The position numbers were made by a program, and so were the translations under genes. A model generated the notes under the pieces. It was not told where the DNA came from. It did no database searches and saw only the letters and a list, made by a program, of their open reading frames with translations. DNA of 64,000 nucleotides. Origin: a virus. Where the stretch lies: the IMG/VR virus record IMGVR_UViG_3300045988_173816, positions 220,027-284,026 of that record; one strand, written 5' to 3'. Below, piece by piece: positions 46,290 to 63,863 of the stretch; positions within the stretch are counted from its first letter, which is position 1; every line of letters starts with the position of its first letter.

Positions 46290-46694
46290 ATGGTTTCCGT
46301 AGCAACAGAATTTCCATATACACATGGGTTGAAAGAGAAGTTTAAAGGTCTTTTAACAGATGTTACTTCTTTCCAACAAGAACAAGAGAACTTGTTAGAA
46401 ACAAGTGTAGATATGATTGAAGGTGGTTCTAAATACAAACTCTCAGTAACTTTAGAAGCACAAGGAGAGGTGCAGACTATTGGTTTGCTTTGTGATGATG
46501 TTTCTGCTTTGGTTTCAGAGTTTCGAGCTATTTTCCATCAGTACTTAGGGGAAGGCGCATCTCTTTACAAAGTGGTCGAAAAGCGCTTTGGAGAAAAGGT
46601 TGAAAGTAATTCTTTGGATGCAGTTTCTTACTTGGTGATGGTTGATAAAGATGTTTATTGGAATATCTTTGTTACCTTGACTTACTTAGGATAA
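46290..46694 (+). CDS. hypothetical protein
   Basis: ORF-track ORF. Confidence 0.5.
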   Translation: MVSVATEFPYTHGLKEKFKGLLTDVTSFQQEQENLLETSVDMIEGGSKYKLSVTLEAQGEVQTIGLLCDDVSALVSEFRAIFHQYLGEGASLYKVVEKRFGEKVESNSLDAVSYLVMVDKDVYWNIFVTLTYLG

Positions 46695-46699
46695 AGCAC

Positions 46700-47566
46700 A
46701 TGAAACAATTTGATTTATTGAATGAAGTAGCAAAAGAGGGGCGAATTTCTTCGCTCACTCTTTCTGTATATTTAGTAAGTGAAGTAGACCCTCGCAAATT
46801 CTTCCGAGAGGGTGTAAAAGTCTCATCAGCAGTTAAGATTGTGCAAGCGCGCGCACTCTTGGGGTATCATAAAGCTTACGGTGAGCTTATTACAGAAGGG
46901 TTTATCTATGTAAGTGTTCCAAAAAACCAACCATTAGGGCAGATAGTTCACTTAACCGGAACTCTAAGTCCAGTAACTTTTGAAGATTATTCCCCAGAGC
47001 TTTCTTTATTGAGATTTGCTAAAGTAGACGGTCGTTGGGTGATACGAGCTTGTGTGTGTAAGTCTTATAAAGAAAGTCCTTACAAGGAAGATTTAGCAGT
47101 GCGAACTTTGAAGAAATGGCCAGAGGTTCCTTATGCTTTAACGAGTGCTTCAGGTTTGGTATATCCTCGGACGATTGGTTTTGATAGGGAAGTTTTGTAT
47201 AGCGTAAACGATGAATTGGTAGAGAGTGAGTTAGAACATTCTAAACCCCAGTTAGGTTCAACACATTTACCTTTAACTTCAACTCAAAAAGCAGTCTTAG
47301 AAGATATGTTGACATTCCCAGTTCTCCAACTCCAAGTAGAAAATGAAATGATTTTGGAACCAGAAGTTTTAGGGGAGTGGTTGAAGTCTCAAGTAAAGGG
47401 TCGCAATTTGCGAGTTTTTGATTTGCGAGGTCGGTCTTTACCAATGAGTGAGGTATTGAAGAAATTAAGAGGGGGAAGTGGTTTCACTTTAGATACTCAG
47501 TTCGTGCTTCTTGTGTCGCAAGTAACTGAGGGTATCCCTTATATTCAGATAGGAACTGTGAGGTAG
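46700..47566 (+). CDS. hypothetical protein
   Basis: The ORF track starts at 46658, overlapping the upstream gene. In-frame ATG at 46700 (MKQFDLL) just after the upstream stop is preferred. Confidence 0.5.
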   Translation: MKQFDLLNEVAKEGRISSLTLSVYLVSEVDPRKFFREGVKVSSAVKIVQARALLGYHKAYGELITEGFIYVSVPKNQPLGQIVHLTGTLSPVTFEDYSPELSLLRFAKVDGRWVIRACVCKSYKESPYKEDLAVRTLKKWPEVPYALTSASGLVYPRTIGFDREVLYSVNDELVESELEHSKPQLGSTHLPLTSTQKAVLEDMLTFPVLQLQVENEMILEPEVLGEWLKSQVKGRNLRVFDLRGRSLPMSEVLKKLRGGSGFTLDTQFVLLVSQVTEGIPYIQIGTVR

Positions 47567-47570: not shown

Positions 47571-48734
47571 TTGGGAACAGTAAAATTTTCGAATAAAGAC
47601 AGTCAAAATATCTTGTTATTAGAGTTATCTAAGAAAGAGAAATTGGACGGTTCTATTTATCAACAACTGCTTTCTAGTGGTTTCTTATATAGTGTTCCTA
47701 TTCAGTACAATGAGAAAAAACAGATGGTTCGATATGATTTAACAGGTTTGATTTCTCTAAAGGTACGTCTAGGTTCTGCAATTACGATTGACGAGTTTTA
47801 TTTACTGTTAGCTAATCTTTATCATTCCTTCTTAGAGTTAGTAAACAACTTAGGTGTACATCCTTCTTTGTTAGATTGGTCACCAGATTTGATTTTCTTG
47901 GATGTAAAAGGGAATATTTACTTCACAGTGTATCCTCTGGTGACAAAGACTGTTGAAGGTAGTGGTTATTTTCATTTAGTGAGAACTCTAATTACAAAAG
48001 CTAAACCATTTCAATCTGTGGATAATCAAGGTTTAGAAAGATTGAGAGGTTTTTTACAAGCGGTTGAAACTGGTGCTTCGGACAGTGAATCTTTCATTTA
48101 CAATTTAGGTTTGGAGTCTTTGAAATATAAGTCTGAGAACTTAGGTGATTATCAGTCTCCTCAATTGAAGTTGATTTTAGAGGGTGTTGAAAGTATTGAA
48201 GAAGAGCTTAAACCAGAGGTGATAACTGAGGTTGTAGGTGGGGTTGAGTTGGATTTAACTCACTTAGACACTGAGATGATGGAACGCACAGGTTTGTTAG
48301 ATACTTCCTCAGATGATGATTTGGAACACACCACTATGTTAGAGGGTGATGAAGGTCAAGTAGCGCACTCTATTGGGTATCTTCTTCGTTCCAATGGTGA
48401 TTCTTTTGAATTAGATAGTCGTAGTGGTGTTGATACTTGGGTATTTGGTAAAAGACCTAAGTTTGTTTCAAGTGCTGAGTTAGGTTTTTCTTTGTCTGAT
48501 AATAAATTTATCTCAGGGACTCATTTTAGAGTAATTTATGAAGAAGATGAAGATAGATTCTACGTTGAAGATTTGGGTTCTACAAATGGTACATGGTTGA
48601 AAGACTCGACTTCTCAAACTTCGACTTGGTTAGATTCTGAACGTTTAAGTTTAGGAAAACCTAAGATTATTAAAAATGGTGACACTATTCGTATTGCAAA
48701 AGAGGAAGTGCAATTTAAAGTGAAAGAGGTTTAA
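47571..48734 (+). CDS. FHA-domain protein
   Basis: C-terminal WVFGKRP....ISGTHFRV....YVEDLGSTNGTWL....GDTIRIA is a canonical FHA signature. The linker carries DDDLEHTTMLEGDEG. Confidence 0.8.
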   Translation: MGTVKFSNKDSQNILLLELSKKEKLDGSIYQQLLSSGFLYSVPIQYNEKKQMVRYDLTGLISLKVRLGSAITIDEFYLLLANLYHSFLELVNNLGVHPSLLDWSPDLIFLDVKGNIYFTVYPLVTKTVEGSGYFHLVRTLITKAKPFQSVDNQGLERLRGFLQAVETGASDSESFIYNLGLESLKYKSENLGDYQSPQLKLILEGVESIEEELKPEVITEVVGGVELDLTHLDTEMMERTGLLDTSSDDDLEHTTMLEGDEGQVAHSIGYLLRSNGDSFELDSRSGVDTWVFGKRPKFVSSAELGFSLSDNKFISGTHFRVIYEEDEDRFYVEDLGSTNGTWLKDSTSQTSTWLDSERLSLGKPKIIKNGDTIRIAKEEVQFKVKEV

Positions 48735-48735
48735 A

Positions 48736-49506
48736 GTGAGACTAGAATATTATTCCGATAGAGGTGGTTATAACGGTACGTCTCGTGTGCGTGGTTACCG
48801 TGAGCACAATGAAGATACAATTGGTTGTTTTCAATTGGATTTAAAAGGTCAGTCTGCATTACCAATTTATGTTTTAGTTGTTTGTGATGGTATGGGTGGA
48901 GGAGTTCGAGGTAAATACGCTTCGTCATTGACTGTTCAAGCAATTAAGTCTGTGGTTGGTTCAATTACACCATTTGATGAAGATGATGTTGATTTACTTC
49001 GTTTAGTACAGAAAGAAGTTTCAAAGGGTATCCGTAAAGCTCACATGCGCTTGTGTGCAGAGTACGAAAACAAGTCAACGTGTGCAACCACTTGCTCGGT
49101 TGCTATTGTACAAGGCTTTGAGTATTGTACTATTCAAATTGGAGACACAAGGGTTTATGAATTAAGTAGTCAAGGGTTGACTTTGAAAACAGAGGATGAC
49201 TCTTGGGCTTTTAATAAATTGAAATCAGGTGAAATGACTGAAGCTGAAGTTCGAGTTCATAAGAATAGACACATGATTACAAAAGCAGTGGGGGTTTACC
49301 GAGGTTTTCGATTGCAAGAGTCTGATGTTTATACTTTACAAACAGGTTCGGGTATCCTAGTTACCTCAGATGGTTTCTCGGAGTTGTTAACAGAACAAAA
49401 GGCTAAGTTAATTTGGTCTAAGGAAAACCAACTAGAGTCTATGTCTAAGATGATGGTTGGCGAAGGTCAAAAAGACAATATTTCGGCAATTTTTTATATG
49501 CCTTAA
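48736..49506 (+). CDS. PP2C-family Ser/Thr phosphatase
   Basis: RGYREHNEDT, VVCDGMGGG and LVTSDGFSE...DNISAI motifs. Confidence 0.8.
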   Translation: MRLEYYSDRGGYNGTSRVRGYREHNEDTIGCFQLDLKGQSALPIYVLVVCDGMGGGVRGKYASSLTVQAIKSVVGSITPFDEDDVDLLRLVQKEVSKGIRKAHMRLCAEYENKSTCATTCSVAIVQGFEYCTIQIGDTRVYELSSQGLTLKTEDDSWAFNKLKSGEMTEAEVRVHKNRHMITKAVGVYRGFRLQESDVYTLQTGSGILVTSDGFSELLTEQKAKLIWSKENQLESMSKMMVGEGQKDNISAIFYMP

Positions 49507-49547
49507 TATCGGTTTTATTAAGTAACAGTAGAAGTAGGTAGCAGTAA

Positions 49548-50564
49548 ATGACGATTGATATTAAAACTTTAGGTAGAAAACAAGGCTCATTCCTTTTGCA
49601 AGGTATGAGTGTGGGTAAAACTCGCAACGATTCAGATATGTTGCAAGGTTCTATTATTGTACGAGGTGGAGACTTTGTTCGCTTTGTCTGTTTCGACAAT
49701 TTGATTGTGTCTCAGTTTAAAGACAATGGAGTTACCAGTATTTATGTAAGTGATGGTGATGTAACTATTCAAGAGTACAATGATAACTTGTCAGCTAAGT
49801 TAGAAGGTATTCGTAGCTTGTCTTCGGACTACAACCCTGCTGAGTTTATGGAAGTTATTGATCCAAGTAAAAATGCTCATGAAATTGGCGCTTTGGTTCG
49901 CAGATTGATGACGGAGAAAGGCGCCCAGTTGACTTTACACATGTTGAGTGATAGAGGAAAAGAATTGAGTGTTGCAATGGCAGCTCAATACGGAGGGTAT
50001 CATGATGGCAAAGTTGGTGGTTTATTAAACCATATTCGTAAGCTCTTGCGTTATGCTGAGGTTGCTATGACTGAATACGAACTCCTCCACACTATGAGTC
50101 CAGAAGAGCGAGATTTGGTAATTTTGGGCTTGGTAGTTCATGATTTTGGTAAGATTTTGGAATTGAAAAACGGTGCTTATACTGAGATTTCGATTGTACC
50201 TCATACTTATTTAGGGATTGAGATTATTTCTAAGTACAAAGACTTGATTGAGCAGACTTACAATGAAATGTTTTACCGTGAATTACAAGCAATTATTTTA
50301 GAGCACCACGGAGAGTTTGGGGAACGCCCTAAAACCGTCTACGCTTACCTAGTTCATGTTATTGATTTGCTTGATTCAAGGGTATCCGGACTTCAACGAA
50401 AAGTTGAAGGGTTGGAGTTAGGTGACTCTACCTTGGTTTCCTTTGATAATTATAAATTGCAGTTTAATCGTTATGATACAAGTAATACAGGAGCGTTCCC
50501 ACAAGCACCTAAGTCAAGTTCTGTTGCCCCTATTTCAGAAGAAAACTCTGAAACTGTTGATTAG
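49548..50564 (+). CDS. YhaM-like OB-fold + HD-domain phosphohydrolase/3'-5' exonuclease
   Basis: N-terminal OB-like GSFLLQGMSVGKTRNDSDMLQGSIIVRGGDFVRFVCFD. HD motifs LVVHDFGKI and ILEHHGEFGERP. Confidence 0.55.
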   Translation: MTIDIKTLGRKQGSFLLQGMSVGKTRNDSDMLQGSIIVRGGDFVRFVCFDNLIVSQFKDNGVTSIYVSDGDVTIQEYNDNLSAKLEGIRSLSSDYNPAEFMEVIDPSKNAHEIGALVRRLMTEKGAQLTLHMLSDRGKELSVAMAAQYGGYHDGKVGGLLNHIRKLLRYAEVAMTEYELLHTMSPEERDLVILGLVVHDFGKILELKNGAYTEISIVPHTYLGIEIISKYKDLIEQTYNEMFYRELQAIILEHHGEFGERPKTVYAYLVHVIDLLDSRVSGLQRKVEGLELGDSTLVSFDNYKLQFNRYDTSNTGAFPQAPKSSSVAPISEENSETVD

Positions 50565-50585
50565 ATTTTAAGTTTGTGGTACAAT
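50557..50585 (+). promoter_or_regulatory. SigA-type promoter-like sequence (TTGATT-17-TACAAT, TG-extended)
   Basis: -35 at 50557-50562 overlaps the stop of the upstream gene; -10 at 50580-50585, preceded by TGG. Followed within about 20 nt by a terminator hairpin. Confidence 0.4.
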
Positions 50586-50603
50586 ACCATTAAGTAGAAA
50601 AGT

Positions 50604-50627
50604 AAGAGGATTTAATATCCTCTTTTT
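50604..50627 (+). terminator. intrinsic terminator / leader hairpin
   Basis: AAGAGGAT/ATCCTCTT 8-bp stem, 5-nt loop and T-run. Confidence 0.6.
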
Positions 50628-50657
50628 CGTTGATTACAACGAGATTGTAGTAAGAAG

Positions 50658-51263
50658 GTGTTTGATATGTTTGAAAAAGAGAGGGTAATACCTAGAAAAG
50701 CATTGTATTTTTTAATAGGTTTTATGTTTCTATTTGTAATTATTTTGGTCTTACTAGCTAGTTATTTCAGTCCAGTTAAAGAGATTGCACCTAGTCAAGA
50801 TCAGGAACGCCAACAAACGATTGCGAAGGGTGTAACAGACAAGGATTTATCTTTTGACCAACTACCAAGTATCAACTCGGTATCTGAAAGTTCGCCAACT
50901 ACTGATTTTTTGTATACGAAAGAATATCAGTTAAGTCGTTTGGAGAATAAATACAAGTTATCGGAGTTAGATTCTGTTTTAACTAAGCTGGGTGAAGAAT
51001 TTACTTTAGTACAACCTGTAGGTAAAATTGAAGGTGATTCTAATTTAGTTACTTTTCGTTCTCCGAACTATGAGTTGACTTATTCTTTAACTAAAGGTTT
51101 GGTTGGGGTTGGCTATAAAGGTTCTGTAAAGTTGGATCAAGTAGTTCCAAAGTTGTTTGGAGGTAAACAAGTCCAAGAATTAGAGAGCAAAGGTTACGCT
51201 AAAGAAGAGACAACTAAGACAGGGTATCATTACTTTGCACACCCTAAGTTTCAGTTAAATTAG
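50658..51263 (+). CDS. membrane-anchored hypothetical protein
   Basis: GTG start after AAGAAGG. N-terminal TM ALYFLIGFMFLFVIILVLLASYF. Confidence 0.5.
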   Translation: MFDMFEKERVIPRKALYFLIGFMFLFVIILVLLASYFSPVKEIAPSQDQERQQTIAKGVTDKDLSFDQLPSINSVSESSPTTDFLYTKEYQLSRLENKYKLSELDSVLTKLGEEFTLVQPVGKIEGDSNLVTFRSPNYELTYSLTKGLVGVGYKGSVKLDQVVPKLFGGKQVQELESKGYAKEETTKTGYHYFAHPKFQLN

Positions 51264-51275
51264 AAAGGGGAATCT

Positions 51276-52550
51276 ATGAGAAAACAAATTGCGTTATTAA
51301 GTTTATGTAGTATTGTGTTAAGTAGTTCTCCTTTTATGTTGAACTCTACACGTGTGTTAGCAGAGGAGAATAAACCAAGTCAAACTCAAAGTGTGGTGTT
51401 AAAGACTTTGGAGAGAGAAAAAGCTGAGGTAAAAACACAAGCTGAGAGGGTTGGTTTCTTACCAAGTGTCCTTATGGCTCTTTGGGTTCGAAACACTGAT
51501 TTTGGACTAAATCCAAGTGCGTTTTCGGTATCCGATTTTGTATCGGAATTGGTAAATAGTGATTCAGAGTTAGCTCAGAGGTTATTAGAAACAGGTAGCG
51601 CTGATGAAGCAGTTGCTTTGTTGTTTAAGTATAAGTATAGCAATGAGAATGATTTTGTAGGTTCTATGAACTCTGCTCTGTCTTTATCTTATGTAAAAGG
51701 TTTAGATAAAGAACTTTATTATAACGGTGTTAAACCTTTATACGATAAAAGTGAATTAAAGACTGGGAAACAACACAGACTGTCTTGGGTATCTTTAAAT
51801 CAAGATGCAGATTTACCCAGTGAACAGTTAGAATCTAAAGCCGATAGTTCTCTGGCTTTTGAAAGGGTTGGCGAAAAGCGTTTAGCTGAGAGTGGTGAAG
51901 TACGTTTTTTACTACCAACTGAGAATAAACATTGGTGGGAGTTTTGGAAAAAGGGGTTGTCTGAGAGTAAGATAACTTTTGAAAAGGAAACGGTTAACGC
52001 CCCTCAAAATGTTCTAGCTATTGCAAGTGTGTTTGCTAAGAAGTTAGGTTGGTCTTTTGACGGTGCTGGTACAGTTAAGACTTCTAATGGTTTATATGCA
52101 GTTGGTTCAGACAGTCAAAAAGTGCTTGTGAACAAGTTGGGTAAAGTTGTAGCAGTTTGGACAAAAGAAGCAAAACCTTATGGTTTTGAAGGGGTTCAAC
52201 AGATTGTTAAAGGTGCTAATGGGTATCTCACAATCGGTTTACGTTCAAGCAGTTTGTTAGAAGATACACCAAGTGTTGAGTTTGTTTTGAATAAAGAAGG
52301 TAAAGTAGATACAAACTTGTTACAACTCAGCTCAACTGAGAAGGTTGTAGGTACATTTACCTTATATGATGTAGGAACTCGTTATGTAGTTGTTGAAGAT
52401 AGTTCAACAGATACTTATAAAGTTCTCTCAGAATTTGGCGGACAAGTCGGTTCCTCAAATAAAGACGATATTAAAGGTGGAAACTTGGAGGATTTAGCAG
52501 TTTACACTCCAATTAAAACGGAGGTAGGTGTTCTATGGCTTCAAGTTTAA
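51276..52550 (+). CDS. secreted hypothetical protein
   Basis: Signal-peptide-like MRKQIALLSLCSIVLSSSPFMLNSTRVLAEE. Confidence 0.55.
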   Translation: MRKQIALLSLCSIVLSSSPFMLNSTRVLAEENKPSQTQSVVLKTLEREKAEVKTQAERVGFLPSVLMALWVRNTDFGLNPSAFSVSDFVSELVNSDSELAQRLLETGSADEAVALLFKYKYSNENDFVGSMNSALSLSYVKGLDKELYYNGVKPLYDKSELKTGKQHRLSWVSLNQDADLPSEQLESKADSSLAFERVGEKRLAESGEVRFLLPTENKHWWEFWKKGLSESKITFEKETVNAPQNVLAIASVFAKKLGWSFDGAGTVKTSNGLYAVGSDSQKVLVNKLGKVVAVWTKEAKPYGFEGVQQIVKGANGYLTIGLRSSSLLEDTPSVEFVLNKEGKVDTNLLQLSSTEKVVGTFTLYDVGTRYVVVEDSSTDTYKVLSEFGGQVGSSNKDDIKGGNLEDLAVYTPIKTEVGVLWLQV

Positions 52551-53779
52551 AGAAGAGATTGTTGTCTGGTGCTTTACTAGGTGCTACGATACTAACATTA
52601 AGTGGTTCGGTATCCTCAGTCTTTGCAGGTTATACTAATGTTGAGGATATTTCAGAGGATGGTTGGAAAACTATTCGAGGAGCAGCAAAGAAAGCAAAAG
52701 AGTTAGGTATTTCTCCAGAAGCTTTCTCTGGGATGATGGGGAACGCCAATGAGGAGTCTTCCTTCGATGCCACTTTGGAAGAAGCAGGGAATGTAGCTAG
52801 TAGAGGTCTTGGTTTATTCCAGTGGACAGATACTAGTGGGAGTCCTCGAAGAACCCAATATGAAAATTGGGTGAAAGAGAAGGGGTATGACATTAAAGAC
52901 CCAGCTACTGCAGGTGCAGCTTCTATTGAGTACATGAATGAGGAGATGCAAGGAAATTCCGATTTTGGTGCCGGTTTTTGGTCTAGTTATATTCATGGAA
53001 TTTGGGGTAGAAGTGACTTAAATCAAACTTCTAAAAGTTATGATGAATTTAAAAAGGCAAAAGATGTAAAGGGTGCAACTTATGACTTTGTAGCTGCTTT
53101 TGAGAGACCCGCAGCCGATACTTTAGATAAACGAGCTAAAATGGCAGAAGCTATTTATGAGAAAATCAAAGATGAATATGGTACTTCAAACGGAGACGAC
53201 AGTTCAAGCTCTAAGAAGAAAGAGTCGGTATCAGACAATTTGAAACGTTGGTCTGAGGAAGATATTCCGAACATGCCTAAAGACCGTGACTATGGTAAAG
53301 AGGAACGTGGTTTCAAAGATCGTATTGATAAGATTGAGAAGTTAAAAGGTGATGAAGCCACAAGTATTGCTAAGTGGAAAGAAGAACGTGATGTTTCTAT
53401 TCAACGAAGAACGATTAAAGGTACTCGTTTAGTTGTAATGGTGCTTTCTATGATTGCTTTGGTGTATCCTTCATTCTTGCTATTTGCTTATGTGTTTGAC
53501 TCATGGTTTGTTTATGTGGACAGTCCAGCTATGCGTTTAGTAACTTTTAACCGTAGAGCTATTGAGCAGAACAGAAATGGCTCTGGTGGTTTATGGTTTG
53601 CAGACAAGAAAGAAAATGCTCGTTTGAAGACAAAACGTTTAGGTTTAGGAGATACTTTGATTTGGGCTGCAATTTTCAGTATTGTAGGTGTAGCTGGTGT
53701 CTCTGGGTTAATGTATGAAACTGCGGGAAGTATTTGGCAGTTTATTGCAGATTCTTGGGGATATTTTCTCAATGGTTAG
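52535..53779 (+). CDS. secreted lysozyme-like (phage-tail-lysozyme fold) cell-wall hydrolase with C-terminal TM segments
   Basis: Signal peptide. GMMGNANEESSFDATLEE...GLGLFQWTDTSG..R resembles the Phage_lysozyme2/lytic-transglycosylase-like motif (recollection). Two C-terminal hydrophobic segments. Confidence 0.55.
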   Translation: MASSLKKRLLSGALLGATILTLSGSVSSVFAGYTNVEDISEDGWKTIRGAAKKAKELGISPEAFSGMMGNANEESSFDATLEEAGNVASRGLGLFQWTDTSGSPRRTQYENWVKEKGYDIKDPATAGAASIEYMNEEMQGNSDFGAGFWSSYIHGIWGRSDLNQTSKSYDEFKKAKDVKGATYDFVAAFERPAADTLDKRAKMAEAIYEKIKDEYGTSNGDDSSSSKKKESVSDNLKRWSEEDIPNMPKDRDYGKEERGFKDRIDKIEKLKGDEATSIAKWKEERDVSIQRRTIKGTRLVVMVLSMIALVYPSFLLFAYVFDSWFVYVDSPAMRLVTFNRRAIEQNRNGSGGLWFADKKENARLKTKRLGLGDTLIWAAIFSIVGVAGVSGLMYETAGSIWQFIADSWGYFLNG

Positions 53780-53800
53780 AAGAGTTAGGAGTAGATTAGA

Positions 53801-55477
53801 TTGGTTAGAAGTGGATCAGTTAAAACGTATTTAAAAGAGGGTGACATCATTGACAAGTCTTGGGAAGTGATTAAGAAGATTGGTCAAGGTGGGACTGCAA
53901 CTGTTTATTTGGTTCGAGATATTGAATTGAATCGGTATCTTGCATTGAAAGAGGTTCCAGTAAGAAATACTGCGAAGGGTAAGTTACAAGCTAAAGCAGT
54001 TATTGCTGAGATTAGCTTGTTAAAAACCTTGAGTCACCCTTCCATTCCTCGTATTATCAAAATGACTCATGATGCTCATTCAATTTTGATTATTATGGAC
54101 TATATTGATGGTTATTCTTTGCGAGATATTATTCGTAAGAAGAATTATATTCCAGAGTCTATGATTATTCAGTGGGGTGTAGCTTTGTGTAAAACCTTGC
54201 GTTATTTACATAATCATGAGCCTAAGATTATTTATCGAGATTTAAAACCACATAATGTCATGATTACAAATGAAAATCATTTGTACCTTATGGACTTCGG
54301 TATCGCAAAAGAGGTTACGCCTAATTTTGATTATAGTAAAGAACCAAAGTTGGGTACATTAGGTTTTGCAGCACCTGAGATGAGTGCTGATGCAGCATGG
54401 TTTGATGAGCGTTCAGATATTTTTGCTTTAGGTAGAACTTTATTTTTCTTAGCGACTAGAAATAGTCCTTCTGTTACACACATGCCAGATGGTACGCCTA
54501 TTCCGATTTTACCGATTCGACAATATGATTCATCTCGTTCAGTTGGTTTAGAAAAGATTATTCTGAAATGTACGGAGAAAAACCCGGAAGACCGGTATCA
54601 AACGATAGATGAAGTTCTTTATGATTTAGAGCATATTGATGAAATGTCTGAAGGGTTCAGAGCTAAGATTAAGCGCAGAGCGAATATGATTTATTTGTTA
54701 TTTATAACTTTAGTTTTAGGTTTTGTGTTAGTTGGGGGTGGCTTATTATACAGTCGCATTTCTGTTGCAGATACTTATAAGCAAGCTTTAGCCGCAGGGA
54801 AAACCTCTCAGTCTATTGACTCATTGTTGAAGGCTAGTAGTATTGCGCCAAGTGAGGTTGAACCTTACTTAGAGATGGTGAAGATTTATCGAGCTAGTGG
54901 TCATTTTACGAGTGAAGATGAGTTTCAATTGCTGGGTGCTTTGCAAACAAATATTCCAAGTTTGAAGGGTAAAGAAGGTGCAGGAGACTTGCTTTATCAA
55001 GTAGGTCAGTTGTATTGGTTCTATTACCCACAGAACGGTCAAACAAAGTCAGTTTCTTGGTTTGAGCAAGCTAAAGAGTTTGGGGTATCTAAAAAGAATG
55101 CACACTTACTTTCAATTTATTTGGAACTTGGTACATTCAAGAAAGGTATTTTAAGTTCGATTACAGACAACTCTGATAGTGGTATGTATAAGACTTATTG
55201 GGACGCTTTGAGCGAATTAGCAGTTGAAATGGGTGGTGACCCTCAGTTAGAGATTACTTATTTGGAGAGTGTCTTTGATGTAATTGACTCTTACTCAGGT
55301 GGTTTGAAGTCTGATGGTTTGACTTTAGAAGAGTTAACAGAAGTGTTTAATAAAGCAGTTGATTCGTTAAACTCTTATGAAGGTAAAACTGATGAGCAGA
55401 AGAAAACGAAGACTGAGTTACAATCGCGTGTAGATACAATTCGCAATAAGTTAAATACAACTTATGGTGTAAGATAG
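53801..55477 (+). CDS. Hanks-type Ser/Thr protein kinase with TM segment and non-PASTA extracellular domain
   Basis: GQGGTATVY, LALKEV, IIYRDLKPHNVMI, MDFGIAK, GTLGFAAPE. TM IYLLFITLVLGFVLVGGGLLY. No PASTA repeats seen in the C-terminal ~240 aa. Confidence 0.85.
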   Translation: MVRSGSVKTYLKEGDIIDKSWEVIKKIGQGGTATVYLVRDIELNRYLALKEVPVRNTAKGKLQAKAVIAEISLLKTLSHPSIPRIIKMTHDAHSILIIMDYIDGYSLRDIIRKKNYIPESMIIQWGVALCKTLRYLHNHEPKIIYRDLKPHNVMITNENHLYLMDFGIAKEVTPNFDYSKEPKLGTLGFAAPEMSADAAWFDERSDIFALGRTLFFLATRNSPSVTHMPDGTPIPILPIRQYDSSRSVGLEKIILKCTEKNPEDRYQTIDEVLYDLEHIDEMSEGFRAKIKRRANMIYLLFITLVLGFVLVGGGLLYSRISVADTYKQALAAGKTSQSIDSLLKASSIAPSEVEPYLEMVKIYRASGHFTSEDEFQLLGALQTNIPSLKGKEGAGDLLYQVGQLYWFYYPQNGQTKSVSWFEQAKEFGVSKKNAHLLSIYLELGTFKKGILSSITDNSDSGMYKTYWDALSELAVEMGGDPQLEITYLESVFDVIDSYSGGLKSDGLTLEELTEVFNKAVDSLNSYEGKTDEQKKTKTELQSRVDTIRNKLNTTYGVR

Positions 55478-55489
55478 GAGGGGTTACTT

Positions 55490-56047
55490 ATGAATTTAGT
55501 AACAATATTGGGTATCCTTTGTATTCTTGGGTCTACCGTAGGTTTATTGATTATTTCTGCAAAATATGGAATTCGTCCAACTTTGGATACTTATAAAGGT
55601 CGAGATAAACAGAAGGTTTTGAATCGTATTCAAGCTCGTAAGCGCATGATTGGTGCAGAACAAACGATGGAGCTAGTAGAGAAATTTACTGCTTTAGAGG
55701 GTGTATCTCGCACAGGTTCCTTGCGTTCTATGACTACAGGTGCTTTGACTTCTGAGATTTTTAAAAACTCTGATAAGTTAGATAGTTTGTTAGAGAACTT
55801 GATGGATAACAATGCTTCAAATACTGCTAGTTTAGAGGGTGATTCCCCAAGTGTAGGGGTTGGTGCTACAAACGAAGATGCAGTTGAAGAACAAACAGGT
55901 TTGCTTGTTTCAAATAAACCTTTAAGCAGAGCTGAGATAGAAGAGCAACGTTTAATTACAGAGCAGGTCAAGGATTCCGTAGCATTTAGCAACACTCAGA
56001 GTGGTATCTTTAAAGTTACTGCCATTTATGACAATATTGAGTTATAG
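55490..56047 (+). CDS. membrane-anchored hypothetical protein
   Basis: N-terminal TM LVTILGILCILGSTVGLLIISA. Confidence 0.5.
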   Translation: MNLVTILGILCILGSTVGLLIISAKYGIRPTLDTYKGRDKQKVLNRIQARKRMIGAEQTMELVEKFTALEGVSRTGSLRSMTTGALTSEIFKNSDKLDSLLENLMDNNASNTASLEGDSPSVGVGATNEDAVEEQTGLLVSNKPLSRAEIEEQRLITEQVKDSVAFSNTQSGIFKVTAIYDNIEL

Positions 56048-56054
56048 TTTGCTC

Positions 56055-56082
56055 TTGCATAATTAAGAAGTTGTGATATAAT
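56055..56082 (+). promoter_or_regulatory. SigA-type promoter (TTGCAT-16-TATAAT, TG-extended)
   Basis: -35 at 56055-56060 and -10 at 56077-56082, preceded by TGA. Confidence 0.55.
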
Positions 56083-56085
56083 GAA

Positions 56086-56117
56086 AAGAGGATTTGAGGG
56101 TTGTCCTCTTTTTGTTT
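56086..56117 (+). terminator. intrinsic terminator / leader hairpin
   Basis: AAGAGGA/TCCTCTT stem, 11-nt loop, then TTTGTTT. The 5' arm starts only 4 nt after the -10. Confidence 0.5.
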
Positions 56118-56148
56118 AAAAAGTGAAATTGGAAAGACAGGTAAGTAA

Positions 56149-59100
56149 ATGTCAAAAGAGATGAGACGTAAGAAGGCTTTACGTTTACAGGTAAAGAGAG
56201 GTAGTTTTTTAGTTGCTGCTTTGGCGAGTGTAGCGGTAGGTGGCTTGAGTACAGTAGGAGCTGATGAGGTAGTTTCTACTGATACACAACCTAGTGTAGA
56301 GGTTTCTTCTACAACAGAAAAACCTACTGAGTCGGTATCCTCACCGAGTGAAAGTTCTAGTCCTAGTCCTAGTAATTCCAGTGATGGTACAGAGGATGAA
56401 AAACATACTGCAGAAGTTGGTTCTACTGACACTGCAAACAAGTCAGAAGAAACTCCTAAAGAGTCTGAGAAACCGAAGGATTCTAATAGCAGTAGTGAAA
56501 CTAAACCGAGTGGTACTTCTAGTGGTAGTTTAGAATCTGATAAGAAACCTTCGATTGAGGGTTCTACAGCTGGTGATAAAGATAAAGATGATAAACATTC
56601 TTCAGAAAAACCAAATAGTTCTGAAGGGTCAAATTCTAACACCGATAAACCTAAAGATGATGTAGAAGTGAAACCAGAGAAATCCGAAAATGGAGAAGGT
56701 TCTTCTACATCAGATAATGAAAAACCTAAAGAGGAAACTCCAAAAGAGGAGCCTAAAGAAGACCCTAAAGAAACACCTAAAGAAAATCCCAAAGAAGAGC
56801 CTAAAGAGGATGATAAAGTTGATGAAGTAAAACCAGAGCTGAAATTTGAAGATACTTCTAAGGTTGAGCAAGTTGGTCAAAGTTATTTAGTCAATTCAGA
56901 CTCTCGTTTGAAGGTTTCTGTTTCTTTTAACAAGCAGAACATTACGGACTTGAAACTTGTACAGAAGTTACCAAATGGTGTCTTTGAAGAGTTCGACATA
57001 ACTGAGGGGTATCTCTTACCCATCAATTCTACGTTGGAGTTGAGTTATAAAGACTCTGAAGGTAAGAGTCAAACTTTGTATTTAGGTACACTTGAAGATA
57101 AAGCAACTATTTCACTAAGTGTAGTTAAAGCAGATAAGTCTACGGTAGAAGTTGGTGCTAATTTAGTCATTACAGGAGATAGCTTACCAGGTACAATTTT
57201 TGCAACCTCATTAGATGGTAAGTATAAGTTAACAGGTATCTTAAACTCTGAGAACACTTATGTTTTTGATGGTTCTGTATTGTATAGTGGTGATTACACA
57301 TTCAACGTTGAAAGTGGAAGTAGTTCTACTTTTGGTAGAAAATTAGGTACAGTTACATTTGATATTAAGGGTGGGGAACAAGCTTTACCAGTTCCAACTC
57401 CAACTCCAGTTCCTAACCCTACACCAAATCCAACACCTACTCCAAGTGTTGATGTAACACCGACTCCGAACAATGGTGGTTCTACAACTACGACTACCGA
57501 CAAACCAACGCCAACTCCAAATCCAAGTCCAGAACCAACTCCTACGGTTCCAAGTACACCAAGTACACCAGTAACACCGACTCCAAGTGCGCCTGTTGAA
57601 ACTCCAAATGCGGACAATCAAGGTGGGGGTACAGTAATTGTAAACCCTTCTGCACCAAGTACAGATACTACAAATGGGAATACAAACACTCCACCGAATA
57701 ATGGTGGCAAGGTTGATATTGGAGGAGTTTCTGATAAAACCAACTATGTAGATAGTCCAGATAAGTTAACAGTAGGGGTATCTGGTGGTTCTGTCCAAAA
57801 TGTTAAGGCTACGGTGTCTTCACAAGAGGGTACAACTGAGTTGACGGGTCGAGTAGTGAATGGTTCTTTCGTAGCAGATAATCTTCCAGAAAAAGATGGT
57901 GTTTATACTGTAAAAGTTCAAGTAACGGATGATAAAGGTCAAGTTTCTGAGAAGACGATTACCTATGCCGTTAACAAAAACGGTTCAACTTATAATTGGT
58001 TGAATAAAGAAGTGAATGGTGCTTATTATCAATATTTGAGCGAAGATTTGAAACTTTCTGAGCATTCAACCACTCGATTGGACACAGGAAAAACTAAGTT
58101 TACGTTTACCTTAGATGGTAAGGTAGTTTCATTGGATTCTCGTCAAGTTAAAGTTGTTGAGAAGAAGGAAGATGATGGTTCTTACACTTATACTTATACC
58201 TTTGATAAGAGTGCCTTTAGAGATAATGGGGTATGGTCAATTTCGGTAGCTACTGTTGACGTAGATGGTCATGCATCTTCTTCAAATGCTTCAGTTCAGT
58301 TTAAATTTGTACTAGATAATATTGCGCCAGAGTTGAAGATTGAGGGGATTTTAAACAACGGTAAGTATGATACTGCAAAACACCAGTTTAAAGTTTTGGT
58401 GAAAGATAATATTGGGTTAGCAAGAGTTCGAGTTTTAATTAACGGCAAAGTTTATGAGTTCACTCGAAGTGAATTGGAGAAGGGTGAAAAGATTTTAGAT
58501 TTGGAACGCTCTGACAAACCATATACGATTGAAGTTGAGGTTGTAGACTTAGCAGGTAATACAACTACTCAAAAGGTTGATGGTATTACAGTTACTGCAA
58601 GTGATATTCAAGCTCTATTGAACTCTGACACTGTTAAACTAGTGTTAGGTGCTTTAGGTGTAGGTGCTTTTGCAGGTCTACTTGCTTGGTGGGGTTCTTC
58701 GGTTCGTAAACGTAAAGCATTGGAAGCAGAACTTGAGCGTTATCGTATTGGAGCACACTTAGTAACAGAAGCAGAGGGTATCCTTTCTTCAAGTGGGGGG
58801 TCTTCGACAGAAGATACAGGTTTAACTGAGTCTGCAACAGGTCCAGTTGATATGGATTCTGTACTAGCTGAGGGTGTTGCTTCGTTAGGTAGAGATACAG
58901 GTTCTATTGAGTCTTCTGGTAAGTTAAGAGTGTTGGGTTCTTCTGAAGAAGGGACTGAGGTTTTAGGTTCAGAAGAAGGTGACGAAACTACTATGTTAGA
59001 GACTGAGGATTTAGATCCAGATGAGTACACTTCAATTTTAACTTCTGAGGATGATGAACATACTACTGTTTTAACTTCTGAGGAAGATGAACATACTACT

Positions 59101-59271
59101 GTTTTGGATTCTGGTGAAGAAGAACATACTTCTTTGTTGGACGAAGGTTCTGATGAACATACCTCTGTACTAGATGAAGAAAATGAACATACTTCTGTTT
59201 TAGATGAGGAAGAAACAACTCCTTTAGAAGAACGTACTACTATTTTAGATAGTGATTCAGACGAAAAATAA
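56149..59271 (+). CDS. large surface protein: signal peptide, S/E/K-rich and PT-rich linkers, beta-rich repeats, C-terminal TM anchor and acidic Thr-repeat cytoplasmic tail
   Basis: MSKEMRRKKALRLQVKRGSFLVAALASVAVGG signal. PTPTPVPNPTPNPTPTPS linker. TM VKLVLGALGVGAFAGLLAWWG followed by SVRKRK. Tail has about 9 copies of (D/E)EHT(T/S)(V/L)L(D/T). No LPxTG seen. Confidence 0.75.
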   Translation: MSKEMRRKKALRLQVKRGSFLVAALASVAVGGLSTVGADEVVSTDTQPSVEVSSTTEKPTESVSSPSESSSPSPSNSSDGTEDEKHTAEVGSTDTANKSEETPKESEKPKDSNSSSETKPSGTSSGSLESDKKPSIEGSTAGDKDKDDKHSSEKPNSSEGSNSNTDKPKDDVEVKPEKSENGEGSSTSDNEKPKEETPKEEPKEDPKETPKENPKEEPKEDDKVDEVKPELKFEDTSKVEQVGQSYLVNSDSRLKVSVSFNKQNITDLKLVQKLPNGVFEEFDITEGYLLPINSTLELSYKDSEGKSQTLYLGTLEDKATISLSVVKADKSTVEVGANLVITGDSLPGTIFATSLDGKYKLTGILNSENTYVFDGSVLYSGDYTFNVESGSSSTFGRKLGTVTFDIKGGEQALPVPTPTPVPNPTPNPTPTPSVDVTPTPNNGGSTTTTTDKPTPTPNPSPEPTPTVPSTPSTPVTPTPSAPVETPNADNQGGGTVIVNPSAPSTDTTNGNTNTPPNNGGKVDIGGVSDKTNYVDSPDKLTVGVSGGSVQNVKATVSSQEGTTELTGRVVNGSFVADNLPEKDGVYTVKVQVTDDKGQVSEKTITYAVNKNGSTYNWLNKEVNGAYYQYLSEDLKLSEHSTTRLDTGKTKFTFTLDGKVVSLDSRQVKVVEKKEDDGSYTYTYTFDKSAFRDNGVWSISVATVDVDGHASSSNASVQFKFVLDNIAPELKIEGILNNGKYDTAKHQFKVLVKDNIGLARVRVLINGKVYEFTRSELEKGEKILDLERSDKPYTIEVEVVDLAGNTTTQKVDGITVTASDIQALLNSDTVKLVLGALGVGAFAGLLAWWGSSVRKRKALEAELERYRIGAHLVTEAEGILSSSGGSSTEDTGLTESATGPVDMDSVLAEGVASLGRDTGSIESSGKLRVLGSSEEGTEVLGSEEGDETTMLETEDLDPDEYTSILTSEDDEHTTVLTSEEDEHTTVLDSGEEEHTSLLDEGSDEHTSVLDEENEHTSVLDEEETTPLEERTTILDSDSDEK
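57388..57600 (+). repeat. coding Pro/Thr-rich low-complexity linker
   Basis: ccaactccaactccagttcctaaccctacaccaaatccaaca... translating to PVPTPTPVPNPTPNPTPTPS...PTPSAPVETP. Confidence 0.7.
58981..59250 (+). repeat. imperfect ~30-33-bp tandem repeats encoding (D/E)EHT(T/S)xL units
   Basis: gatgaacatactactgttttaacttctgag / gaagatgaacatactactgttttggattct / gaagaacatacttctttgttggac / gatgaacatacctctgtactagat / aatgaacatacttctgttttagat. Confidence 0.75.
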
Positions 59272-59313: not shown

Positions 59314-59336
59314 CTTTGCTTATAGAAGAGGTCTTC

Positions 59337-59765
59337 ATGAAAGAATTATTTCAAGGTTTTATTGCAAAGCGCTTAGCTACACAGTTAAAAGATTATAGTG
59401 CAAGTGAACTTTTACGATTTTACGGTTCGATGCGAGAAAGAGTATACGCGCATTTAACTATGTTTCTGTTAGGTGCTTTCGCTTTATGTAATTATATTTA
59501 CACTTATGGTTTTGGACAGTGGGTATTATACTTACTTTTAGTTGCTATCTTACTAGGTTTATTAACTTCCGTAGTTTATCATATTGGAGTTTTCACCATG
59601 GTCAAAGGGTATCTACTTCTTCGAATGAAACCTATTTTAGATGAGTCAGAACGCCCAGAGAGCTATTTTAAGAGTAAAATTCCAACCAGTGATATTTCTA
59701 TCACCAGTTTGAAAGTAGAAAGCGTACAGGGTAATTCTGAGCCTTCTGAGGGTAGTCCTGAATAA
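59337..59765 (+). CDS. membrane protein
   Basis: ATG 59337 sits 5 nt after GAAGAGG (the ORF track starts at TTG 59316). Two to three TM segments. Confidence 0.5.
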   Translation: MKELFQGFIAKRLATQLKDYSASELLRFYGSMRERVYAHLTMFLLGAFALCNYIYTYGFGQWVLYLLLVAILLGLLTSVVYHIGVFTMVKGYLLLRMKPILDESERPESYFKSKIPTSDISITSLKVESVQGNSEPSEGSPE

Positions 59766-59787
59766 TGTAGATAGGTTTGTGGTTTAG

Positions 59788-61679: not shown

Positions 61680-61785
61680 TACCTTAACTGAAAAAGAAGA
61701 AGTAAACGCATAAAGCAATCCCAAGCGGACTATGTGTGCGGAAATTGATTTCCGTTTGAAATTCGGTTAGGGTTTTCAGTATAAA

Positions 61786-62841: not shown

Positions 62842-62867
62842 TAACCGATTAGGGGGTTTTTCCTTTA

Positions 62868-63858: not shown

Positions 63859-63863
63859 TATAA

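Follow-up and report, generated by a model that had tools for sequence, protein, structure and literature searches.

Genes of the locus

The locus was analyzed in a 64-kb stretch of DNA (hereafter the window) from an element that measures at least some 285 kb. Its host is a giant plasmid-like element of the pXO16 family from the human oral microbiome, in which the locus is part of the conserved backbone. The following features were recognized:

46658..47566, + strand: 302-aa protein directly upstream of the FHA gene (homolog in the same position in L002 and pXO16)
47571..48734, + strand: TseJ-like adaptor, DUF6382-linker-FHA (Pfam, AF2, Foldseek, alignment to TseJ)
48282..48299, + strand: linker motif 1, ERTGLL, aa 238-243 (conservation in 15 homologs)
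48324..48341, + strand: linker motif 2, EHTTML, aa 252-257 (conservation in 15 homologs)
48736..49506, + strand: TseF-like PP2C (PPM) Ser/Thr phosphatase, presumed eraser (Pfam PP2C_2)
49548..50564, + strand: HD-domain protein, distantly YhaM-like (Pfam HD; NCBIfam YhaM, E 5.6e-11, below the cutoff)
50658..52550, + strand: two envelope proteins of 201 aa (N-terminal TM helix) and 424 aa (signal peptide), conserved in relatives
52535..53779, + strand: secreted lysozyme-like peptidoglycan hydrolase with a C-terminal membrane region (Pfam Phage_lysozyme2, E 8.5e-24)
53801..55477, + strand: TseD-like Hanks Ser/Thr kinase, presumed writer (Pfam Pkinase, E 3.6e-45)
55490..56047, + strand: TseH/K-like small single-pass membrane protein, 185 aa, with a disordered cytoplasmic region (position, architecture)
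55886..55909, + strand: motif EEQTGLLV of this protein, aa 133-140 (sequence reading)
56149..59271, + strand: TseI-like surface protein, 1040 aa (Pfam Big_13 and Big_3_2)
58639..58692, + strand: TM helix of the surface protein, aa 831-848
58945..59250, + strand: ten tandem acidic T-x-[VILM/P]-L units, aa 933-1034, candidate phospho-Thr docking sites (shuffle test)
59316..60366, + strand: 149-aa membrane protein and type I signal peptidase (Pfam Peptidase_S26, E 4e-28)

The FHA, PP2C, kinase and surface-protein genes all lie where a preliminary description of this DNA had placed them, and Pfam confirmed the FHA and PP2C domains that it had proposed. In the FHA protein, aa 1-205 form a kinase-like (pseudokinase) DUF6382 domain and aa 264-387 the FHA domain, and the linker that joins them (aa 206-263) is disordered; the Pfam match to FHA covers aa 308-375 (E 4.6e-12), and that to DUF6382 is weak. 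In the AF2 model (pLDDT 78.6 overall, below 50 in the linker) the N-terminal domain resembles the T7SS pseudokinase YukC/EssB (6z0f), and Foldseek also matched FHA structures. When the family profile was compared with Rad53 FHA1, the phosphothreonine-binding residues were found intact: S315 corresponds to S85 and H318 to H88, STNGTWL is identical, and FGK takes the place of FGR. Two observations weigh against the docking scheme proposed below: the canonical phosphate-binding Arg of the GR motif is Lys in the family (Arg in P0072 and in the TseJ of B. haimaensis), and the AF2 model, in which the linker is unphosphorylated, does not confidently place it in contact with the FHA domain.

Both enzymes retain their catalytic residues. 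The metal-binding and catalytic motifs of the phosphatase (DGMGG, GDTR, SDGF, DNIS) are intact, as are those of the kinase (GQGGTATV, ALKE, YRDLKPHN, DFG, APE), in which Pfam revealed no PASTA repeats; motif reading and Pfam thus bear out the earlier view of this enzyme. A cytoplasmic kinase domain precedes a TM helix (aa 296-317); the extracellular domain beyond it (aa 318-558) is predicted to be all-helical, with 11 helices modeled at low confidence (pLDDT 65). Full-length matches connect the kinase with those of pXO16 (E 4e-109) and Eubacterium (TseD, E 8e-76).

Behind its signal peptide, the surface protein has a stalk of low complexity and Ig-like domains, followed by the TM helix, an RKRK sequence and a 192-aa acidic cytoplasmic tail; it matches the Ig-like protein of pXO16 (E 2.5e-29). 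The 185-aa protein is likened to TseH/K mainly because of its position and architecture, and these are the same in pXO16, L002, L004, L013, L014, L016, and L017, where its counterparts carry one to seven motifs; it has a conserved C-terminal strand, VTAIYDNIEL, and its only direct sequence match is to the N-terminal 68 aa of the L002 protein (E 7e-8).

Several of the remaining genes distinguish the plasmid-borne versions of the module. The 302-aa protein, for which no match was found in Pfam, PHROG or PADLOC, has homologs in L002 (E 7e-25) and pXO16 (E 5e-7) and is a conserved partner specific to these versions. The HD-domain gene stands between phosphatase and kinase only in plasmid-borne loci (L002; pXO16, E 3e-34); the chromosomal L004, L013, and L014 lack it. 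Three oral relatives, L002, L016, and L017, share the lysozyme-like hydrolase and the two envelope proteins of 201 and 424 aa, for which no family match was found. The same relatives have the 149-aa membrane protein and the S26 peptidase as downstream neighbors, and these two may process the secreted proteins of the module.

Acidic T-x-x-L motifs in three proteins of the module

The preliminary description had reported about nine units in the tail of the surface protein. The TM helix, the acidic tail and the repeats were confirmed, but the units number ten (nine T-x-[VLIM]-L and ETTPLE, repeating about every 11 aa), since the first of them, EGTEVLG, had been missed. The repeats are real and beyond chance: composition-preserving shuffles of the tail contained 0.52 units on average and four at most, and none of 20,000 reached nine. 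Among the plus-strand ORFs of the window, the strict pattern [DE]HT[TS][VLIM]L was confined to two, the tail (five times) and the FHA linker. The FHA linker carries two conserved motifs rather than the single unit noted before, and the motif of the small membrane protein is a further addition.

Within the otherwise variable linker both motifs are conserved among 15 homologs that are 35–92% identical to the window protein: E238 and T240 of motif 1 and T254 of motif 2 are invariant, and L243 and L257 are conserved in at least 90%. Across 34 DUF6382-FHA proteins, motifs occurred 2.1 times per 100 aa of linker vs. 0.12 times per 100 aa of N-terminal domain. Tail homologs that are full-length and 67–92% identical contain 7–11 units, a 51% identical homolog contains three, and two short called fragments contain six to eight. 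Because the repeats persist in all tail homologs, the loss from homologs that would have spoken against the original idea was not observed.

The location of the repeats shifts between systems, with several copies always present. Counted for the FHA linker, the small membrane protein and the tail of the Ig-like protein, the copies are 2, 1, and 10 in both the window and L017, 2, 4–5, and 3 in L002, 2, 7, and 0 in pXO16, and 2, 5, and 0 in B. haimaensis; in pXO16 and in chromosomal loci the repeats relocate to the small membrane protein. Even homologs with as little as 25% identity retain the motif Thr and the Leu at +3. Within one element, moreover, the motif subtypes vary together: TG(L/V)L is the form of linker motif 1 and of the small membrane protein, where it reads EEQTG(L/V/F)L, and T(T/S)(V/I)L that of linker motif 2 and the tail repeats. 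The conservation, relocation and co-variation with the FHA linker point to cognate substrates within the module. PknA-dependent phosphothreonine sites have been found to be enriched in upstream acidic residues and in Leu/Val at +3 (PMC7164672), and the sequence context of the motifs fits this reported acceptor preference of a Hanks kinase.

Relationship to T7SSe loci and pXO16

The module had been presented as an undescribed autonomous circuit. Instead, its genes are homologous to the TseJ-TseF-TseD-TseH/K-TseI set of a T7SSe variant and stand in the same order. This variant, with TseJ, TseF, TseD, TseH/K, and TseI, was described by Garrett et al. (2024; PMC11217815), who had already proposed regulation by threonine phosphorylation; DUF6382-FHA is the architecture that defines TseJ. 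The chromosomal T7SSe locus of B. haimaensis (L004) encodes, in this order, EssC, YukD, two WXG100 proteins, DUF6382-FHA, PP2C, the kinase, a TM protein (149 aa) and an Ig-like protein (1615 aa). The window proteins match its TseJ (E 2e-5; near full length, as with the pXO16 FHA protein) and, by tblastn, its TseF (E 1.5e-19), TseD (E 1.6e-66) and TseI (E 5.6e-9, including the last Ig domain and the TM helix). The complete conjugative plasmid pXO16 of B. thuringiensis shares with the window both the module and backbone synteny. Judged by sequence, the locus is the half of a T7SSe-type system that would regulate it and span the envelope, with TseJ-, TseF-, TseD-, TseH/K-, and TseI-like genes.

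The five T7SSe-specific components in canonical order could also belong to a complete functional T7SSe, in which the module regulates toxin secretion and EssC, YukD and WXG100 are encoded elsewhere on the element; more than 200 kb of it lie outside the window and could contain EssC, and Garrett et al. (PMC11217815) left open whether new T7SS variants occur on plasmids. We regard this as unlikely. Of the four chromosomal loci compared, three (L004, L013, and L015) show core T7SS genes no more than 10 kb away from the module; what can be seen of L015 is limited to the FHA protein, a 143-aa protein and WXG100. The fourth, L014, shows none upstream, and its downstream side ends inside the Ig-like gene. 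By contrast, Pfam and tblastn revealed no EssC, WXG100 or YukD in the window, which includes 47 kb before the module and 5 kb after it, and no core genes occur in the 10-kb flanks of the module in L002, L016, and L017. The complete pXO16 has the module and, by tblastn (which would miss a very divergent WXG100), no EssC, YukD or WXG100; its sole FtsK-like gene encodes a single-domain protein.

A putative phosphothreonine circuit

Bacterial Hanks kinases are generally promiscuous, and the kinase and phosphatase might act mainly on host proteins, mimicking the StkP/PhpP-type pair of the host and reprogramming cell division or envelope physiology to the advantage of the plasmid, with the acidic repeats as decoys, autoregulatory substrates or plain low-complexity expansions. 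The best NCBIfam matches, to the Stk1/PknB catalytic domain (E 1.6e-50) and Stp1/IreP (E 1e-37), agree with this, but they are far below the family cutoffs and limited to catalytic domains, whereas the entire kinase, including the extracellular domain, aligns with the TseD and pXO16 kinases. Together with the signs of in-module substrates given above, this makes a host-directed pair quite improbable. A role in defence against phages or plasmids, in which a Ser/Thr kinase would be the core of the system and the Ig-like protein its surface sensor, is in our view very improbable: in PADLOC the kinase has matches to the kinase families mad6 (E 4.8e-55) and PD-T4-6 (E 6e-48), and the PP2C a weak one to PDC-M21C, but these are confined to generic catalytic domains, the FHA, small TM, Ig and 302-aa proteins have no PADLOC match, and architecture and gene order fit T7SSe and no listed defence system. 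Neutral slippage in an acidic low-complexity tail, with a coincidental likeness to the FHA linker, could account for tandem units whose copy number differs among close relatives, but is strongly disfavoured, since Thr and the +3 Leu are kept across units while other positions and codons diverge, and the motif recurs at non-homologous positions, in systems 25–35% identical and in chromosomal T7SSe loci, with the strict pattern restricted within the window as described above.

Overall, the best explanation, and in our opinion a fairly probable one, is a motor-less T7SSe half on an element of the pXO16 family, operating by phosphothreonine docking on T-x-x-L motifs. The predicted kinase/FHA/phosphatase logic is well supported by comparison; from these comparisons we infer the phosphorylation of the motifs, their binding by the FHA domain and the signal. 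In the proposed scenario, the helical extracellular domain of the kinase would sense an envelope or contact cue, and the kinase would phosphorylate the Thr of acidic T-x-Φ-L motifs in the adaptor linker and in the cytoplasmic tails, likewise disordered, of the two membrane proteins whose genes directly follow the kinase gene. The FHA domain of the adaptor would dock multivalently on the pT-x-x-L sites and bring the pseudokinase-like DUF6382 domain to the membrane proteins; the adaptor's own linker motifs may serve for self-association or self-inhibition, and PP2C would reset the system. As a best guess, the output would be control of an envelope-spanning structure that serves the plasmid in cell contact or transfer.

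In comparison with the T7SSe of Garrett et al. (PMC11217815), the docking motif, the repeats fused to a TseI-like tail and the lack of a secretion ATPase on pXO16-type plasmids are new. The same arrangement of motifs occurs in a chromosomal T7SSe locus, a point not raised in that work, and in the canonical T7SSe the motifs could be read by the FHA domains of EssC instead of TseJ.

Genes and domains of the module

The open reading frames assigned to the signaling module in the preliminary description all lie where they had been placed, on the + strand, and belong to the following series of genes:

46658–47566, +, 302-aa protein
47571–48734, +, FHA protein (Pfam FHA at aa 308–375, E 4.6e-12)
48736–49506, +, phosphatase (Pfam PP2C_2)
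49548–50564, +, HD protein
53801–55477, +, kinase (Pfam protein kinase domain, E 3.6e-45)
55490–56047, +, small transmembrane (TM) protein
56149–59271, +, surface protein of 1040 aa (Pfam Ig-like domains Big_13 and Big_3_2)

The catalytic motifs of the kinase are complete, as had been described, and those of the phosphatase are intact as well. The reported lack of PASTA repeats agrees with Pfam, which shows none in 53801–55477. Since, in addition, the NCBIfam scores were under the cutoffs for both the Stk1/PknB type (kinase, 172.7 versus 450) and the Stp1/IreP type (phosphatase, 129.9 versus 230), a PASTA kinase/phosphatase pair (Stk1/Stp1, PknB/PstP) was rejected. The kinase ectodomain is predicted, with low confidence, to be all-helical, as has been published for TsdD and TseD. 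An anti-phage defense system (PADLOC mad6, PD-T4-6) was dismissed, as the generic kinase catalytic domain alone matched and the partner proteins did not.

The N-terminal part of the FHA protein matched DUF6382 (Pfam, E 2.4e-5, just under the cutoff), and PF19909 is precomputed on most of the 66%-identical homologs of this protein and on a few others. In Foldseek searches the N-domain matched the T7SS pseudokinase YukC/EssB (E 5.8e-4, 220 columns) and a kinase domain; because of these structural matches, DUF6382 probably has a kinase-like fold. The family of FHA proteins comprises 73 clusters at 90% identity, all of them metagenomic, on carrier contigs of up to 230–300 kb; the exact protein of the window was found on a human oral metagenome contig of 284 kb.

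The surface protein has a signal peptide and a TM helix (aa 831–848) followed by RKRK and by an acidic tail of 192 aa, which is predicted to be cytoplasmic because of the positive-inside rule. Between the phosphatase and the kinase, the window encodes the HD protein, two envelope proteins and a lysozyme-like hydrolase. The HD protein is distantly YhaM-like and matches PHROG 5889 (unknown function). Its gene lies 3′ of the PP2C gene in the plasmid-borne versions examined (the oral relatives L001, L002 and L017, and the Bacillus thuringiensis plasmid pXO16) and is absent from the chromosomal loci of the type VII secretion variant T7SSe.

The T-x-Phi-L motif, its proposed reader and writer

The tandem repeat noticed earlier in the tail of the surface protein is real, with a period of about 11 residues, and its count of about nine units rises to ten (nine T-x-[VLIM]-L units and ETTPLE). 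In 20,000 shuffled tails of the same composition the mean was 0.52 units and the maximum 4. In all + strand ORFs of the window, the strict pattern [DE]HT[TS][VLIM]L was confined to two proteins, in the tail of the surface protein and in the linker of the FHA protein. In this linker, EHTTML was confirmed, although it is not the single unit that had been reported: a further motif, ERTGLL (E238-x-T240-x-x-L243), lies upstream and is equally conserved. Among 15 aligned representatives (35–92% identity to the window protein), EHTTML has an invariant Thr, T254, and a Leu, L257, with a conservation of at least 90%. According to AlphaFold2, both motifs would be located in a disordered linker (aa 206–263, pLDDT below 50) that joins the well-predicted N-domain to the FHA domain.

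Loss of the repeats from homologs had been named as a result that would speak against their function. Full-length homologs of the surface protein with 67–92% identity retain 7–11 units, two short called fragments have 6–8, and a homolog at 51% identity has three left, so that this objection does not apply.

The acidic motif with Thr at position 0 and Leu at +3 (T-x-Phi-L) was also found in the small TM protein and at comparable places in related systems.

Number of T-x-Phi-L motifs in the FHA linker, the small TM protein and the tail of the Ig-like surface protein
Window: linker 2; small TM protein 1; tail 10
Oral relative L017 (65% identity): linker 2; small TM protein 1; tail 10
Oral relative L002 (FHA protein about 37% identical by tblastn; surface protein is the 51% homolog): linker 2; small TM protein 4–5; tail 3
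pXO16: linker 2; small TM protein 7; tail 0
B. haimaensis chromosomal T7SSe locus: linker 2 (EGTTVLG, EGTTMLG); 149-aa TM protein 5; tail 0

The motifs of the 149-aa protein of B. haimaensis include GETTLLS, DETSLLG and EETTLLA, and the tail of the large Ig-like protein of this locus (TseI) is short and motif-free. The Eubacterium locus and a third one have 2–4 motifs on the small TM protein and 2–5 in the linker. From these counts it follows that several copies are always kept and that their carrier switches between two adjacent membrane proteins. Across 34 DUF6382-FHA proteins the motif occurs 2.1 times per 100 residues in the linker versus 0.12 per 100 in the N-domain, with 4–7 tandem copies in some of them. 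Two subtypes of the motif vary together in each element: linker motif 1 and the small TM protein share TG(L/V/F)L, and linker motif 2 and the tail share T(T/S)(V/I)L. Judging from these alignments and counts, T-x-Phi-L is a conserved short linear motif.

The small TM proteins compared here (window 55490–56047; L002 9225–9980; B. haimaensis locus L004 14029–14478; cellular loci L013 13739–14188 and L014 13627–14079) share, in addition, a C-terminal hydrophobic strand-like motif (VTAIYDNIEL, LTVIYHNISL, ITYIHSDNIIV, IVLIHTEEVI), and this strand may be a second docking element that is independent of phosphorylation.

The preliminary description had proposed that the kinase writes the phosphorylated sites, the FHA protein reads them and the PP2C phosphatase erases them. 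The FHA domain alone retrieved nothing from the PDB with phmmer, and the family profile was needed; its best alignment was to Rad53 FHA1 (E 2.4e-8). In this alignment the phosphothreonine-contacting S315 and H318 and the STNGTWL loop are conserved, with the caveat that the canonical FHA Gly-Arg is Gly-Lys in most members of the family. The Arg by which Rad53 selects Asp at +3 aligns with Phe in the family, a substitution that appears compatible with a hydrophobic residue at +3. Foldseek matches of the FHA domain were FHA structures, including those of the self-binding GarA, OdhI and DgcB (tail complex). On the side of the presumed writer, upstream acidic residues and a Leu or Val at +3 are reported to be enriched around phosphothreonine sites that depend on PknA (PMC7164672), and the context of T-x-Phi-L matches this preference. 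Overall, the comparative sequence evidence supports the proposed phospho-docking well.

Relationship to T7SSe loci and to pXO16-type plasmids

The closest described counterpart of the module comes from Garrett et al. (2024; Microlife, PMC11217815), the only study mentioning DUF6382 in the literature searched, in which T7SSe and the related T7SSd and T7SSj are presented as type VII secretion variants of Bacillota and Actinomycetota. According to these authors, T7SSe is defined by the EssC-type membrane ATPase TseC, with several FtsK/SpoIIIE domains and N-terminal FHA domains, by two WXG100 proteins (TseA/TseA2) and by the YukD-like ubiquitin-fold protein TseB. Its other parts are the Ser/Thr kinase TseD, which spans the membrane and has a helical ectodomain, the PPM phosphatase TseF, the cytoplasmic DUF6382-FHA protein TseJ, the small proteins TseH and TseK, each with one TM helix and a cytoplasmic stretch that is unstructured, and TseI, a large Ig-like protein exported by Sec, with a TM helix at its C-terminus. 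Control by threonine phosphorylation was proposed there for T7SSd/e/j with no substrate or docking site given; T-x-Phi-L is not mentioned, the respective regions being termed merely short and unstructured, and a literature search found no follow-up paper.

To reach the cellular DUF6382-FHA proteins an exhaustive HMM profile search was needed, a word-indexed profile search having yielded one new relative and a scan of the contigs of GTDB species representatives with the FHA-alignment profile none. The B. haimaensis locus has the order EssC, YukD, toxin-like genes, two WXG100, DUF6382-FHA, PP2C, kinase, 149-aa TM protein and 1615-aa Ig-like protein. By tblastn, its FHA protein (TseJ) aligned with the window protein over nearly the full length (E 2e-5), in line with the FHA and DUF6382 matches of the latter; PP2C (TseF, 1.5e-19), kinase (TseD, 1.6e-66; helical ectodomain predicted) and surface protein (TseI, 5.6e-9, with Big_13 domains) matched as well. 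The window kinase also aligned with the Eubacterium TseD over the full length, including the ectodomain (E 8e-76). The small TM protein corresponds to TseH/TseK in position, topology, motif content and C-terminal strand, with weak sequence homology. The J-F-D-small TM order recurs in two further cellular loci, being followed in L014 by an Ig-like protein and in L013 by a 505-aa protein, a second DUF6382-FHA protein, YukD and EssC. By virtue of this homology and gene order, the window module is, at the sequence level, the J-F-D-H/K-I half of a T7SSe-type system. Therefore, the circuit cannot be called undescribed in its gene set, which is the T7SSe accessory set; three aspects appear to be new, namely T-x-Phi-L as a docking code shared by the whole family, the TseI-like tail to which it is fused, and a module without the ATPase as a backbone feature of pXO16-type and oral giant plasmids.

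The secretion motor was found neither in the 64 kb of the oral element that make up the window nor on pXO16. TseC of B. haimaensis had no tblastn match in the window, where the sole FtsK-domain ORF (1506–3995) has a single ATPase domain and no FHA domain, and on pXO16 it matched only one ATPase domain of the single-domain FtsK-like protein. Pfam detected neither PF06013 nor PF08817 in about 75 ORFs of the window (26 small ones included), and the combined Pfam and tblastn searches found no EssC, WXG100 or YukD there; likewise, tblastn found no WXG100 or YukD anywhere on pXO16, very divergent small proteins being able to escape both searches. As the FHA-bearing EssC partner appears to be missing on the plasmids, the output of the circuit would have to be something else there.

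With respect to the carrier, all genes of the window lie on one strand with steadily positive GC skew. They encode a VirB4-like ATPase fragment, a single-domain FtsK-like membrane ATPase, DnaB, a primase and a PolA-type polymerase of 1307 aa, together with IS605/IS607-type elements, an S26 signal peptidase, HU and eight tRNAs. No phage genome was matched by the region in megablast, and in tblastn against phages the polymerase gave remote PolA matches only. The best plasmid matches of the polymerase and the FHA protein were B. thuringiensis pXO16-type plasmids of about 349.6 kb; pXO16 is a 350-kb plasmid of B. thuringiensis sv. israelensis with aggregation-mediated conjugation (PMC9673590, PMC6199540). 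The whole window (1–64000) is syntenic with such a plasmid, NZ_CP045024.1, in the shared order VirB4-like (E 1e-69), FtsK-like (E 6e-50), SpoVG, SNF2/DEAD helicase, DnaB, primase, PolA (34% identity) and module. On pXO16 the module itself comprises the homolog of the 302-aa protein, FHA, PP2C, HD, kinase (E 4e-109, full length), small TM and Ig-like proteins. The window thus carries the pXO16-family backbone and, because of this synteny, the giant oral element and pXO16 are distantly related by their gene content. The T7SSe proteins of B. haimaensis matched pXO16 too (kinase 46.6% identity, E 1e-93; PP2C 3e-35; Ig protein 1e-26).

The element may or may not belong to the Inocles, giant extrachromosomal elements of oral Streptococcus with 245–368 kb, VirB4 and VirD4, S26 peptidase, tRNAs, replichore GC skew and about 32% GC (PMC12340149). 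It is of oral origin, the contig has 284 kb, and the window has VirB4-like and FtsK-like proteins, an S26 peptidase, eight tRNAs and a steadily positive GC skew; the GC content of the window is 36.6% versus 32%, and the Inocle_004 primers were not found in it. The Inocle paper mentions neither kinase/FHA genes nor pXO16, the pXO16 reviews consulted mention no kinase or FHA module, and the link between the oral element and pXO16 is absent from all of them.

Several further features of the window were recorded. The segment 58–3995, which has homologs on pXO16, encodes the VirB4-like ATPase with its C-terminal part (including GSGKS as Walker A), a TM protein of 59 aa and the FtsK-like protein of 829 aa, with a Gly/Pro/Gln-rich disordered N-terminus, TM segments, a long acidic linker and its single FtsK-like ATPase domain; the VirB4-like and FtsK-like proteins probably correspond to the two ATPases of the pXO16 "tip" transfer locus. 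Two TnpB-type (OrfB_IS605/Cas12f-like TNB) genes are present (7276–8697 and 31961–33719), the second with a MerR-HTH serine recombinase 5′ of it in an IS607-like arrangement. In the oral relative L016, a similar pair of a resolvase and a 425-aa protein sits between the kinase and small TM genes, so that the module tolerates IS insertion. A kinase domain resembling HipA (E 9.5e-8) forms the C-terminal part of a 268-aa protein (30409–31215); this protein, which has no relation to the Hanks module, may be a toxin-antitoxin or persistence-type kinase. The 546-aa protein at 23060–24700 has ParB-N-like and HNH domains, and the 897-aa protein at 24788–27481 weakly matches LPD1 (large polyvalent protein); polyvalent-protein domains are typical of conjugative and phage elements. 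The eight tRNAs (Leu, Arg, Lys, Phe, Val, Asn, Pro, Met; 61596–63937) lie just downstream of the HU and signal peptidase genes.

Proposed mechanism and comparison with known systems

We propose that an envelope cue would activate the TseD-like kinase, which would then phosphorylate the T-x-Phi-L units of the TseI-like tail, of the tail of the small TM protein and of the adaptor linker; the FHA domain of the adaptor would dock multivalently on the phosphorylated units, and the PP2C would reverse the process. Since no more than about 10 residues separate linker motif 2 from the FHA domain that follows it, we infer that the adaptor's own sites more likely bind in trans or compete with the tails, and less likely bring about a simple self-inhibitory closure as in GarA. 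The FHA domains of EssC could also be recruited by these sites in chromosomal T7SSe loci.

The neighborhood offers some indication of what is controlled on plasmids. The 302-aa and HD proteins are common to the window and pXO16, and the hydrolase and signal peptidase are common to the window and its oral relatives only. At best tentatively, these conserved neighbors and the distant conjugative ATPases point to the control of an envelope-spanning or contact-related structure. On pXO16, the Ig protein linked to the kinase does not belong to the aggregation (agr) region, a possibility that was examined: the module occupies 128–152 kb, and the large surface proteins with sortase linkage, presumably of the agr region, are located at 263–290 kb, more than 110 kb away. 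More speculatively, and on balance improbably, pXO16- and Inocle-type giant plasmids might have co-opted the phospho-signaling half of a T7SS and dispensed with the secretion ATPase. They would then own a receptor-like transmembrane device whose ectodomain is Ig-like, whose tail or co-receptor offers up to ten phosphothreonine docking sites and whose adaptor is a soluble FHA-pseudokinase protein. This device would sense cell contact or envelope state and control mating or another plasmid function, T-x-Phi-L being the docking code of all T7SSd/e/j-type systems. If this were true, it would represent a bacterial counterpart of multi-site immunoreceptor tail signaling and a so far unrecognized docking code.

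For T7SSd/e/j, the repeats provide exact, mutable candidate sites on TseH/K-type proteins, the TseJ linker and the TseI-like tail. For giant plasmids, the module gives a first mechanistic handle on a block of unknown genes and links two element families, since it belongs to the conserved backbone both of pXO16, for which the mechanism of transfer is still mostly unexplained, and of giant elements that are very abundant in the human mouth.

Among known systems, the mycobacterial FhaA/FhaB-PstP-PknA/PknB cell-wall operon likewise has an adaptor that docks on phosphorylated membrane proteins, and the FhaA FHA structure 2lc1 was among the Foldseek matches; however, the module lacks RodA, PbpA and PASTA, and its adaptor has DUF6382 rather than DUF3662 as N-terminal domain. 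Switches of the GarA/OdhI/DgcB type share an acidic (E)TT-type motif upstream of the FHA domain in the same protein, whereas the adaptor described here has two motifs and DUF6382 as the partner domain. In the T6SS pathway of PpkA, PppA and Fha, a membrane component phosphorylated on threonine is bound by an FHA protein, leading to assembly; the TssL-pThr/Fha interaction of A. tumefaciens is cited in PMC11217815. That pathway also encodes a membrane Hanks kinase, a PP2C and an FHA adaptor together, but the relationship is at the domain level only, T6SS genes are absent from the module, and the latter has many tandem sites and an adaptor with a pseudokinase-like domain.

The likeness to pXO16 extends to the single-strand gene orientation and the landmark order, although the proteins are just 25–35% identical, the host belongs to a different branch of the phylum, and the repeats of pXO16 are on the small TM protein. 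Where the oral elements have the hydrolase block, pXO16 has about 14 small hypothetical genes in the HD-kinase gap (NZ_CP045024.1, 133.6–142 kb), similar in size and probably paralogs. T7SSe differs from the window in having EssC/TseC, WXG100 and YukD, which were found neither in the window nor on pXO16, and in lacking the insertion of the HD protein, two envelope proteins and hydrolase between phosphatase and kinase; in the window, moreover, the TseI-like tail has the repeats fused to it, and the carrier is a giant plasmid-like element. Nevertheless, the window and T7SSe share homologous TseJ, TseF, TseD, small single-TM protein and TseI in the same gene order, with T-x-Phi-L motifs at matching places in the bona fide T7SSe locus of B. 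haimaensis.
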